A stretch of 64,000 nucleotides of DNA from Escherichia coli. Lineage in GTDB: Bacteria > Pseudomonadota > Gammaproteobacteria > Enterobacterales > Enterobacteriaceae. This document shows, piece after piece, positions 21,001 through 23,355 of this stretch. A program made the position numbers. The stretch lies in assembly GCF_965641715.1 (NCBI RefSeq), contig NZ_OZ282453.1; one strand, written 5' to 3'. The first letter of the stretch is position 1; every line of letters starts with the position of its first letter.

Positions 21001-23355
21001 GTAAGCTGTTCCGCCCGTTTATCCCGCCCGTTGTTGATGGCAAATTGTGGCAGGATTATCCGACATCAGTGTTAGCCAGCGACCGCCGTTTTTTCAGTTT
21101 TGAGCCGGGGGCGAAGTGGCACGGCTTTGAAGGATATGCCGCGGATCAGTATTTTGTTGATCCGTGCAAGCTGTTACTCACTACACCAGGTATCGATTCC
21201 GAAACCGGCGAATATAGCGACTTTGGCGTTCCGGCGACGATTCTGGCGCACTATCTGCGTGAGAACGGCATTGTGCCGGAGAAGTGCGATCTCAATTCCA
21301 TTCTGTTCTTATTAACTCCGGCGGAAAGCCACGAGAAGCTGGCACAACTGGTGGCGATGCTGGCGCAATTTGAACAGCATATTGAGGATGACTCGCCGCT
21401 GGCTGAGGTGTTGCCGAGCGTTTATAACAAATATCCGGTGCGCTATCGCGACTACACCCTGCGCCAGTTGTGTCAGGAGATGCACGATCTGTATGTCAGT
21501 TTCGACGTCAAAGACCTACAAAAAGCGATGTTCCGCCAGCAGAGTTTCCCGTCAGTGGTGATGAACCCCCAGGATGCGCATAGCGCTTATATTCGCGGTG
21601 ACGTGGAGTTGGTGCGGATTCGTGATGCCGAAGGGCGAATTGCGGCAGAAGGGGCGTTGCCTTATCCACCTGGCGTGCTTTGCGTGGTACCCGGGGAAGT
21701 CTGGGGTGGGGCGGTTCAACGTTATTTCCTTGCGCTGGAAGAAGGGGTGAATTTGTTGCCGGGATTTTCGCCGGAGCTGCAAGGTGTTTATAGCGAAACC
21801 GATGCGGATGGCATGAAACGGTTGTACGGTTATGTGTTGAAGTAAGAATAAAAAAAACGGGTCACCTTCTGGCGACCCGTTTTTCTTTGCGTAATTAGTG
21901 GCTAACCGTCTGTGTACCTGTCGGGACACGAACGTGTTTATATTTGAACATCGCCATGAACGCGAAGGCCAGAACCACGGAGTAACCAGCGAAAATCAAC
22001 CATACGGTCTGCCAGTCGGTAATGCCGTTTTGGGTGTACATCTCAACAACTTTACCGCTCACGATGCCGCCGAGGATACAGCCGAAGCCGTTGGTCATCA
22101 TCAGGAACATCCCTTGCGCACTGGCGCGAATCGCCGGGCTAACTTCTTTTTCGACAAACACCGAACCAGAGATGTTGAAGAAGTCGAACGCACAGCCGTA
22201 AACAATCATCGACAGAACCAGCAGTACGGTGCCGAACGGAGTCGGGTCGCCGTAAGCAAACAGCGCAAAACGCAGGATCCACGCCACAATACTGATCATC
22301 ATTACGTTCTTAATACCGTAGCGGCTTAAGAAGAATGGGATGGTCAGAATGAACAGGGTTTCAGAGATCTGCGAAATCGACATGATGATTGACGCATGCT
22401 GCACAATAAAGCTGCTGGCAAACATCGGATCTTTGTCGAAGCTGTGCAGGAAGGTATTACCGAACATGTTGGTAATCTGCAGTTCCGCGCCCAGCAGCAT
22501 TGAGAAGATGAAGAAGATTGCCATACGCTTGTTTTTAAACAGCGCGAATGCATCGAGGCCCAGCAGGGTTGTCCAGCTCTGATTCGCTTGCTGTTTAGCA
22601 ACCGGAATATGCGGCAGAGTCAGGGTAAACAGAACCAGAATGGCGGAAAGTGCTGCGCCAATATACAGCTGCATGTGGCTTAATTCGAAGCCAGACAGGC
22701 TCACCACCCACATTGCCATGATAAAGCCGATGGTGCCCCAGATACGGATTGGCGGGAAGTCAGTAACGATATCCATCCCGGCATTTTGCAGGCGATAGTA
22801 AGAGATGGTGTTGATTAACCCAAGCGTTGGCATATAAGCAAACGAGTTAATCAATATCACAAGGAACATCGCCTCCGGCGTCGTGACCTGTGCCGCCATG
22901 AACAGCGTGATAGCGCCAATGGTGTGGCAAATGGCATATACCCATTTCGCACTTAACCATTTGTCGGCCACAATCCCCAGCAGCGCAGGCATAAAGACCG
23001 CGGCGATACCCAGTGAGCTATAAACTGCGCCAATAGAAGCACCGTCAAACTTCAGGGTAACAAACATATAGGAACCGAGGGTCGTCAGCCAACTTCCCCA
23101 CAGACAGAACTGCAGAAAAGAGAGGATTTTCAGCTGCAGCTTAAGATTCATGTTAATTTCCTCACATCGTGATGCGGATGAGTGTTTGAAAAAGCACATT
23201 TGACCGTGCGAGATGATGGGATTCTATCAACTTCGCGGACTGGTTTTTTGTTACCTGTGGCAAATAATTGCAAACATTCCTAATTTGCAAAACGAAATTG
23301 TGATATGGATAACATTTTTGCCCCTGAGCATCGTCAGGGGCGGTTAGTGGAATTA

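Follow-up and report, generated by a model that had tools for sequence, protein, structure and literature searches.

The nupG promoter of O157:H7-type Escherichia coli as a CRP-activated and CytR-repressed control region

The best-mapped promoters of the CytR regulon are deoP2 and udp, at which, as at nupG, a CytR dimer sits between two CRP dimers positioned ~50-53 bp from each other and represses by anti-activation (PMC3454398; PMC5957442). nupG has been experimentally shown to be a member of this regulon, and its cassette has been described in the order CRP, CytR-distal, 9 bp, CytR-proximal, CRP (PMC3454398). The three promoters differ in the distance between the CytR half-sites, which is 0 bp at deoP2, 3 bp at udp and 9 bp at nupG (bioRxiv 2021.02.28.433298), as well as in the use made of CRP: both CRP sites of nupG are involved in activation and in repression, whereas only one of the two serves activation at deoP2 and udp (PMC3454398). 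Cooperative binding of CytR and CRP, and repression that is relieved by cytidine, have been reported for the K-12 nupG promoter (Pedersen et al. 1995 as cited in PMC3454398). A second repressor, DeoR, recognizes the 16-mer consensus TGTTAGAATTCTAACA and represses nupG, a known target like the deo operon, through palindromes in its promoter (PMC5326754). The in vivo CRP occupancy, regulon membership, 9-bp spacing, anti-activation and cytidine induction referred to in this report are taken from the literature, and the basis of the cassette model in our own analysis is sequence identity to K-12, matrix ranks and a phylogenetic footprint. The K-12 nupG promoter was reportedly characterized by Pedersen et al. 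in 1995 and by Munch-Petersen and Jensen in 1990. The CRP/CytR control region of nupG is already known; it is textbook biology, and no new finding is presented here.

The window, that is, the whole stretch of 64,000 nucleotides of E. coli DNA that was analysed, is of the O157:H7 type, and we assign positions 23214-23314 on its minus strand to the nupG promoter, activated by CRP and repressed by CytR in the manner of the CytR regulon, with a probability of about 0.95 (Table 1). The intergenic mltC-nupG region is 100% identical to that of O157:H7 and, over the 200-bp spacer, 98.5% identical to its K-12 orthologue; it is present as a single copy in 5,425 of 5,426 complete E. coli genomes. The gene order (trmB / mutY-yggX-mltC-nupG / speC) and the flanking genes are the same as in K-12. 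The permease itself is 100% identical to K-12 NupG and matches the NCBIfam nucleoside permease model TIGR00889 with 748 bits against a cutoff of 446, and RefSeq annotates the gene as nupG in both O157:H7 and K-12. On the + strand, a 143-aa open reading frame (23305-23736) runs antisense to mltC; the O157:H7 and K-12 records annotate no gene in its place.

Table 1. Elements of the nupG control region and its neighbours, in window coordinates.
Feature	Sequence	Coordinates	Strand	Remarks
nupG CDS, nucleoside:H+ permease		21895..23151	-	intact, 418 aa plus stop; ATG at 23151
Site C, palindrome-like 16-mer, putative	TGTGAGGAAATTAACA	23151..23166	-	spans the Shine-Dalgarno sequence and the A of the ATG
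Shine-Dalgarno sequence of nupG	GAGGA	23159..23163	-	read from sequence; invariant in nearly all 79 orthologous regions
Site B, inverted repeat TGTk-N8-AACA, candidate second DeoR operator	TGTGCTTTTTCAAACA	23183..23198	-	in the 5' UTR
Site A, DeoR-operator-like 16-mer	TGATAGAATCCCATCA	23214..23229	-	overlaps the -10 and the predicted +1; 12/16 match to TGTTAGAATTCTAACA
Extended -10	TGATAGAAT	23221..23229	-	93% conservation in 76 species outside Escherichia
Proximal weak CRP site (CRP-1)	TTTGCCACAGGTAACA	23249..23264	-	centre 50 bp from the distal site, ~-42.5 from the predicted start
CytR proximal half-site, octamer	TTTGCAAT	23267..23274	-	core TTGCA, 94% conserved
CytR distal half-site, octamer	TTTGCAAA	23284..23291	-	core TGCAA, 91% conserved
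Distal strong CRP site (CRP-2)	TGTTATCCATATCACA (nupG strand); TGTGATATGGATAACA (+ strand)	23299..23314	-	centre ~-92.5 from the predicted start
GC-rich hairpin directly after the mltC stop codon		23320..23341	-	RNA fold -16.2 kcal/mol, z = -4.0
mltC CDS, upstream neighbour on the strand of nupG		23353..24432	-	RefSeq annotation, from the identical O157:H7 locus and the K-12 locus

A sequence-only reading of this DNA had proposed a CytR/CRP-controlled nucleoside transporter promoter, and this proposal is borne out both by the literature and by the base-for-base alignment with the characterized K-12 nupG promoter. The alignment contains three substitutions in 221 bp, two of them within the promoter, and none falls on a base recognized by CRP or CytR: in the distal CRP site, the window has T for the K-12 C at a central position that is not contacted; in the spacer of the CytR operator, it has A for G; and the remaining substitution belongs to the 3' end of mltC. 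Every motif base of the CRP, CytR, -10 and leader elements is the same in K-12 and the window, which also conforms to the published distances, with 9 bp separating the CytR half-sites and 28 bp the CRP 22-mers. On this sequence comparison, no functional difference between the O157:H7-type and K-12 promoters is expected.

To score CRP sites, a matrix was built from 104 published ChIP-seq sites, from which that of nupG was excluded, and applied to 63,985 positions of the window. The distal site, noticed previously as a CRP-like motif and carrying one mismatch to TGTGAN6TCACA, ranked first among all positions at 16.5 bits and exceeded 88% of the ChIP-seq training sites; the K-12 allele scored 16.8 bits on the same matrix. 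Among the orthologues, 63 of 79 retain at least 8 bits at this position. The site is an in vivo target according to CRP ChIP-seq in enterotoxigenic E. coli (ETEC) H10407, in which TGTGATGTGGATAACA was reported for the nupG peak (PMC4287617). This allele, found in K-12 and ETEC, differs from the site in the window at one central base. The motifs had been placed 120-160 bp upstream of nupG, in good agreement with the 117-163 bp that we measured from the ATG on the minus strand.

Downstream of the distal site, toward nupG, two TTGCAAA repeats had been described as ~18 bp apart; both are indeed present (23268-23274 and 23285-23291), with a spacing from start to start of 17 bp and not ~18 bp. Expressed as gaps, the CytR octamers are 9 bp apart, the TTGCAAA heptamers 10 nt and the TTGCAA cores 11 nt, and TTGCAA, being a palindrome, reads equally as a direct or an inverted arrangement. 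CytR half-sites are known to consist of TGCAA/TTGCA pentamers within octamers separated by less than ~5 bp or by roughly a helical turn (PMC3454398; bioRxiv 2021.02.28.433298), and a distance of 9 bp has been reported for nupG (PMC3454398; independently bioRxiv 10.1101/2021.02.28.433298); the nupG region of the window has two such octamers between its CRP sites, separated by a 9-bp spacer. The proximal octamer ends at 23267, where the proximal CRP 22-mer starts (16-mer core at 23264), which accords with the published rule whereby one or more CRP operators are placed no more than 5 nt from a CytR half-site and with the published overlap of the proximal half-site and the proximal CRP site at nupG (PMC3454398).

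Short motifs of this kind might simply have come together by chance in an AT-rich intergenic stretch, with no role in regulation, and two observations are compatible with such an explanation: the spacer contains 42% GC compared with 52% for the window, and no single motif is enriched in the window, in which there are 10 copies of TTGCAAA where 19.7 are expected, and 23 CRP cores of at most two mismatches where 25 are expected. The hexamer TTGCAA is even under-represented, with 16 copies against ~34 in first-order Markov simulations. The arrangement, however, is exceptional. The nupG pair is the only TTGCAA pair 8-14 nt apart in 64 kb, whereas ~10% of simulated 64-kb windows contain any; a given 200 nt of intergenic composition would hold such a pair with a probability of about 1e-4; and the pair together with a CRP site of at most one mismatch appeared in 0 of 200,000 simulations. 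It is arrangement and conservation, not single motifs, that carry the weight for the nupG cluster. Taken with the first rank of the CRP site, the selective footprint in 76 species described next and the published in vivo CRP ChIP-seq refute a chance origin, to which we leave a negligible probability.

The footprint was derived from 79 enterobacterial nupG upstream regions, 76 non-Escherichia species being used for percent conservation. Identity to the window is 84-97% for the recognition bases overall and 29-48% for intervening bases; within the cassette, half-sites are conserved at 73-94% and spacers at 29-48%. Over the 79 regions, the corresponding values are 84-94% for half-sites and 29-41% for the spacers that separate them. 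At the distal CRP site, the half-sites reach 84% and 73% around a central 6 bp of 29%, and the 9-bp spacer of the CytR operator (23275-23283) is conserved at 41%. Because the aligned species are related, some of this conservation is inherited, and the spacers in the same alignment act as an internal control. The arrangement TGCAA-N11-TTGCA was exact in 65 of 80 upstream regions, and its spacing was invariably N = 11. In the Klebsiella oxytoca group, the CytR boxes have been lost together with the distal CRP site, and because of this joint loss, the boxes and the distal site behave as one module.

These patterns also bear on the identity of the protein that binds between the CRP sites. Inter-site DNA is used for contacts of the RNA polymerase alpha subunit at class III CRP promoters, and the TGCAA/TTGCA blocks might accordingly serve the alpha C-terminal domain or another protein instead of CytR, so that only the CRP part of the model would hold. 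Such a view could draw on the degeneracy of the half-sites, which match the SELEX octamer at only 5/8 and 6/8 positions (counted by eye), on the weak binding of DNA by CytR alone, and on the fact that operator positions at most promoters have been predicted from the consensus and not mapped (PMC3454398). However, the conserved bases are exactly the CytR pentamers TGCAA and TTGCA, inverted and at a spacing that is fixed across species and equal to that published for nupG; nupG is among the promoters from which the published CytR matrices were made, and showed two clear conserved peaks there; and in the Klebsiella oxytoca group, the boxes disappear jointly with the distal CRP site. We therefore consider a non-CytR assignment of the blocks extremely unlikely.

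Turning to the part of the promoter nearer the gene, the proximal CRP site is far weaker than the distal one: it scored 7.6 bits (rank 32 of 63,985), below the 10th percentile of ChIP-bound sites, and its right arm, (G)TAACAAA, is 94% conserved. The register is ambiguous by 2 bp. The one adopted in Table 1 leaves 28 bp between the two CRP 22-mers, and the published gap is 27-28 bp (PMC3454398). An alternative at TGCCAcaggtaACAAA (23247-23262), centred 52 bp from the distal site and at -40.5, scored -3.2 bits as against 7.6 and is kept as an alternative only. The two CRP sites thus flank the CytR operator about five helical turns apart, with centres separated by 50 bp (52 bp in the alternative register); centres of -40.5 and -92.5 for the CRP sites of nupG correspond to the alternative register. 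From this geometry, we infer a transcription start at ~23214 (A). The proximal CRP centre then lies ~42 bp upstream of the start, at the position of a -35 element, and a sigma-70 consensus scan detected no -35/-10 pair and no -35 hexamer at the nupG promoter. The missing -35 is expected for a CRP-dependent, and hence activator-dependent, promoter and is not counter-evidence.

In the mechanism that we propose, cAMP-CRP would occupy the strong distal site (~-92.5) and the weak proximal site (~-41 to -42), the latter substituting for the missing -35 element, and both dimers would recruit RNA polymerase to the extended -10. A CytR dimer placed on the two octamers between the CRP dimers would bind cooperatively with CRP and mask its activating surfaces, resulting in anti-activation, and cytidine would break the CytR-CRP cooperativity, so that the transporter would be made when nucleosides are present and glucose is absent. 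DeoR would probably act in addition at the palindrome covering -10/+1 (23214-23229), and possibly at another at 23183-23198. Our results support the view that the sequence-only reading, which dealt with the CytR operator and with the distal one of the two CRP sites, was incomplete and not wrong: the weak proximal CRP site, the extended -10 and core promoter, the DeoR layer and the minus-strand orientation of nupG were absent from it.

Expression of nupG could also depend mainly on read-through from mutY-yggX-mltC, in which case the CRP/CytR cassette would be minor or vestigial. The hairpin that follows mltC lacks a U-tract on the strand of mltC and nupG, and because CAAAAAUG comes next, it is not a canonical intrinsic terminator, which fits the listing of mutY-yggX-mltC-nupG as one four-gene operon (PMC4421995); both points can be counted in favour of read-through. 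Strong purifying selection nevertheless acts across genera on the cassette, the extended -10 and the leader elements, CRP occupies its site in vivo (PMC4287617), and read-through can coexist with an internal regulated promoter. Expression mainly by read-through, with a minor or vestigial cassette, appears very unlikely.

Several 16-mers in the promoter and leader resemble the operators of the deo operon, TGTTAGAA-TTCTAACA and TGTTAGAA-TACTAACA, which are 16-bp palindromes like the nupG candidates. Compared with TGTTAGAA-T(T/A)CTAACA, sites A, B and C match at 12/16, 11/16 and 12/16 positions, respectively, the value for site C being confounded by the ribosome-binding site. Site A belongs to a set of just four loci in 64 kb that have at most four mismatches to the DeoR palindrome, and the nupG leader contains two of these four best matches in the window. 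One of the nupG candidates overlaps a TAGAAT -10, and the DeoR operators of deo likewise overlap a -10. The position of site A is conserved, and its Buttiauxella version, TGTTACTTTCCTAACA, has three mismatches. The arms of site B are 82% and 97% conserved around a centre of 41%, and its five mismatches in E. coli are reduced to two to four in Buttiauxella orthologues (e.g., TGTTAGAAATGAAACA); sites A and B are both nearer to the DeoR consensus in Buttiauxella, with two to five mismatches. Site C, with four mismatches tied for the best in the window, also differs from a CRP core at a single base (11th in the window by CRP matrix score, at 10.4 bits), and its arms, TGTG and AACA, are 95-96% conserved, a value that is confounded by ribosome-binding-site constraints. 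The conserved leader elements are probably DeoR operators, at positions that we infer from these matches.

A terminator scan flagged a possible attenuator in the leader, GCACGGTCAAATGTGC followed by TTTTT (23209-23194); the leader folded no better than its shuffles (z = -0.5), and the stem was unconserved beyond Escherichia and Citrobacter, while the overlapping TGTk-N8-AACA repeat was conserved, so the attenuator was rejected. Rfam searches at gathering thresholds gave no known RNA element in or near the region. At locus L006, a deletion fusing the leader to codon 11 was likewise rejected, ~65-70 bp being deleted instead from between two repeats, TGTGAGGAA and TGTGGGGAA.

The centres of sites A, B and C lie at ~-7.5, +24.5 and +56.5, at intervals of 31 and 32 bp. 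This phasing, together with the sequence matches and the conservation, allows a more speculative reading, in which three 16-mers resembling DeoR operators, all on the same helix face, would let octameric DeoR coat the promoter and leader at short range, or, alternatively, CRP would also bind at +56; we regard it as rather unlikely. Part of it may reportedly already be described by Munch-Petersen and Jensen in 1990. The operators of deo are hundreds of bp apart. They act by looping (PMC5326754), whereas the nupG candidates, as judged from sequence, are spaced by 31-32 bp and reach only 11-12 of 16 matches in E. coli. If the three-operator reading were true, cooperative short-range coating by DeoR would take the place of the long-range looping of the deo type.

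Set against the comparison that seven genomes permitted in 2012, the footprint from 79 species shows the nupG cassette more cleanly, with its invariant N11 and the loss of its distal half in the Klebsiella oxytoca group; together with the results on the leader elements, it leaves current understanding unaltered. The O157:H7-type window keeps the K-12 nupG promoter with every motif base, and the value of this work lies mainly in correct annotation. The bare sequence sufficed for the recognition of a classical combinatorial promoter, at which CytR turns the activator CRP into a platform for co-repression.

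The region upstream of nupG is a known element, not a new one: this O157:H7-type sequence carries, without change, the nupG control region already characterised for CRP/CytR (and DeoR). A sequence-only reading had proposed a CytR/CRP-controlled nucleoside transporter promoter at 23260-23320, and this was supported by alignment with K-12, CRP matrix rank, conservation and the published cassette. The present analysis supplies the identity, the matrix ranks and the conservation, and the literature supplies protein binding and induction. The spacer at 23153-23352 (200 bp) was 100% identical to that of O157:H7 strains and 98.5% identical to that of K-12, and a search of 5,426 complete E. 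coli genomes found it as a single copy in 5,425. The gene order is trmB, mutY, yggX, mltC, nupG, speC (RefSeq, identical O157:H7 locus and K-12). NupG is identical to the K-12 protein and scored 748 bits against the NCBIfam nucleoside permease model. From the strand and start codon of nupG and the end of mltC (see table), the interval therefore lies upstream of nupG, as had been assumed.

nupG has been experimentally shown to be a member of the CytR regulon (PMC3454398). Its activator is cAMP-CRP; CytR binds weakly alone and cooperatively with flanking CRP dimers, which blocks CRP activation, and cytidine abolishes CytR-CRP cooperativity, leading to derepression (PMC3454398, PMC5957442). The nupG cassette consists of CRP-distal, CytR-distal, 9 bp, CytR-proximal and CRP-proximal, with the proximal CytR half-site and proximal CRP site overlapping, a gap of 27-28 bp between the 22-bp CRP sites, and both CRP sites involved in activation and repression alike (PMC3454398); the 9-bp CytR spacing was independently stated in bioRxiv preprint 2021.02.28.433298. 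Read on the nupG strand, the window gives AAATGTTATCCATATCACAATT TCG TTTTGCAAA TTAGGAATG TTTGCAAT TA TTTGCCACAGGTAACA AAAAACC...TTGATAGAAT CCCATCA. Over 221 bp, it differed from K-12 W3110 at 3 positions (in the last mltC codons, in the central 6 bp of the distal CRP site, and between the TTGCAA cores, in their spacer), with all recognition bases identical. Judged by sequence, there is no departure from the published CRP/CytR mechanism.

The flagged motifs were all present: two TTGCAAA repeats at 23268-23274 and 23285-23291 (+ strand) and a CRP-like site, TGTGATATGGATAACA, at 23299-23314 with 1 mismatch to the CRP core consensus, together 117-163 bp from the ATG. The repeats fall within the two CytR octamers, which are separated by 9 bp; TTGCAA being palindromic, this direct repeat corresponds to what the literature treats as an inverted pair, TGCAA...TTGCA. 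Neither TTGCAAA nor the CRP core was enriched across the window, and TTGCAA was rarer than expected (16 copies vs ~34). The nupG pair was the only TTGCAA pair 8-14 nt apart within 64 kb, the chance of such a pair being ~1e-4 per given 200-nt stretch of intergenic composition, and a pair plus a near-consensus CRP site arose in 0 of 200,000 simulations. The weight is carried by the arrangement of the motifs, not by single-motif counts.

A symmetric 16-bp CRP matrix was built from 104 sites of the ETEC H10407 ChIP-seq table (PMC4287617), excluding 3 sites inside the window (nupG, galP and cmtB). The distal CRP site scored 16.5 bits, which ranked first of 63,985 window positions and exceeded 88% of the training sites. 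The ETEC nupG peak contains the site TGTGATGTGGATAACA (PMC4287617), the K-12 allele, which scores 16.8 bits vs 16.5 bits and is unlike the window at 1 central, non-contacted base. Elsewhere in the window, a perfect CRP core, TGTGAAGCAAATCACA (40740-40755; rank 2), lies 64-79 bp upstream of the start codon of galP (minus strand, ATG at about 40676) and equals the galP site of the ETEC table read on the opposite strand. Two other strong matrix matches 44 bp apart, at 51636-51651 (15.4 bits) and 51592-51607 (12.3 bits), lie within the coding sequence of cmtA, part of the mannitol-type PTS operon cmtBA (O157:H7 coordinate transfer), and differ from the tabulated cmtB site.

The sequence-only reading had noted the distal CRP and CytR motifs and overlooked a proximal CRP site. 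This site, TTTGCCACAGGTAACA at 23249-23264, scored 7.6 bits (rank 32), by which it is a weak site; its register leaves 28 bp between the CRP 22-mers, in agreement with the published gap. The register 23247-23262, which would give sites at -40.5 and -92.5, scored -3.2 bits; ACAAA, which overlaps the TAACA end, is the right arm in that alternative register. No -35 hexamer was found at the nupG promoter, and a consensus promoter scan gave no match there. From the promoter geometry, we infer a transcription start near A23214, which would put the distal CRP site at about -92.5 and the proximal one at about -42.5 (or at -40.5 if the alternative register holds).

Features of the nupG control region; sites A, B and C are DeoR-operator-like 16-mers, and identity is to the window among 76 non-Escherichia sequences
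Feature	Position	Strand	Identity	Remarks
mltC	end at 23353
GC-rich hairpin	23320-23341	minus		directly after mltC stop; -16.2 kcal/mol, z = -4.0
Distal CRP half-site TGTTA			84%
Distal CRP central 6 bp			29%
Distal CRP half-site TCACA			73%
CytR distal octamer TTTGCAAA	23284-23291
CytR core TGCAA			91%
9-bp spacer between CytR octamers			41%
CytR proximal octamer TTTGCAAT	23267-23274
CytR core TTGCA			94%
Proximal CRP arm ACAAA	23247-23251		94%
17 bp between proximal CRP site and -10			32%
Extended -10 TGATAGAAT	23221-23229		93%	right distance downstream of proximal CRP site
Site A TGATAGAATCCCATCA	23214-23229	minus		spans -10 and +1; DeoR match 12/16
Site B TGTGCTTTTTCAAACA	23183-23198	minus		between A and C; 5 mismatches, DeoR match 11/16
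Site C TGTGAGGAAATTAACA	23151-23166	minus		spans Shine-Dalgarno and ATG; DeoR match 12/16
nupG	21895-23151	minus		ATG at 23151; intact 418-aa translation

DeoR also represses nupG, via promoter palindromes with the operator consensus TGTTAGAA-T(T/A)CTAACA (PMC5326754). Within the 64-kb window, 4 loci lie at most 4 mismatches from this palindrome, 2 of them in the nupG leader. Sites A, B and C span the stretch between the -10 and the start codon with centre-to-centre distances of 31 and 32 bp, and all three keep their position across orthologues. In Buttiauxella, sites A and B come nearer to the consensus, at 2-5 mismatches across the orthologues and at just 2-3 in the sequences TGTTACTTTCCTAACA (A) and TGTTAGAAATGAAACA or TGTTAAAAAACTAACA (B). 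We take site A to be a probable DeoR operator, and site B may perhaps be another. Site C scored 10.4 bits as a CRP site, and its conservation is confounded by that of the ribosome-binding site. The hairpin after mltC is followed by CAAAAAUG without a U-tract and is no canonical terminator on either strand, which fits the listing of mutY-yggX-mltC-nupG as a single operon (PMC4421995). The post-mltC sequence varies by genus, with other inverted repeats in Enterobacter-type loci. Folding of the nupG leader RNA gave no unusual structure, and an Rfam search of the nupG region matched no family. Gathering-threshold matches elsewhere were naRNA4 (CssrE; 30419-30489, +; 63 bits) and ES036 (CssrF; 50423-50465, +; 53.5 bits), families that we believe to be built on REP-type repeats. 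The low end of the window (about 1-18,500) holds a genomic island whose insertion point is tRNA-Phe (18426-18498, minus), by O157:H7 coordinate transfer with collinearity checked at the tRNA and nupG only; besides an integrase and many IS fragments, it encodes the type III effectors espL2, nleB and nleE, and we take it to be OI-122-like.

In Escherichia sp. MOD1-EC7003 (L006, 2500-2560), ~65-70 bp are deleted between two imperfect direct repeats, TGTGAGGAA in the Shine-Dalgarno region and TGTGGGGAA in nupG codons 17-20. The nupG start codon and roughly 20 initial codons are thereby lost and the promoter is spared, so that the locus probably represents either a natural null allele of nupG or an error of assembly. 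E. coli NIPH17_0020 (NZ_AP024560.1; L085, 2473-2501) is the sole complete E. coli genome with partial coverage, and one other has no match at all. The deletion in NIPH17_0020 takes the mltC 3' end, the distal CRP site and the pair of CytR half-sites and keeps the proximal CRP site, -10 and nupG; mltC is annotated there as a pseudogene without its C-terminus. Phytobacter diazotrophicus (L077) and Enterobacteriaceae UBA3516 (L080) carry a ~190-nt insertion, containing ...GAATCCCCAGGAGCTTACTCTGGTAAGTGACTGAG..., in the nupG 5' UTR between a conserved TGTk-N8-AACA repeat and the Shine-Dalgarno; this contained sequence resembles an ERIC/IRU repeat.

Conservation was assessed with one genome per species, by aligning 270 nt upstream of each nupG start codon at 80 loci with NupG orthologues (82-99% protein identity) from Escherichia, Citrobacter, Enterobacter, Leclercia, Lelliottia, Kluyvera, Raoultella, Klebsiella, Buttiauxella, Kosakonia, Phytobacter, Atlantibacter and others. 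Conserved recognition bases alternate with free spacers in one alignment (see table), which serves as an internal control against simple relatedness. TGCAA-N11-TTGCA was exact in 65 of 80 sequences, the spacer being 11 nt without exception, and the distal CRP site scored at least 8 bits in 63 of 79 orthologues. In the Klebsiella oxytoca group (L037, L038, L051, L052 and L068) and one Enterobacter isolate (L012), neither the distal CRP site nor either CytR half-site is present, and what is retained is the extended -10 with a proximal CRP site in degraded form. From these alignments, the Klebsiella oxytoca lineage thus appears to have lost the CRP/CytR module of nupG as a whole. CytR control of nupG was described as probably lost in K. 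pneumoniae (PMC3454398), a remark that the loss in the Klebsiella oxytoca group extends.
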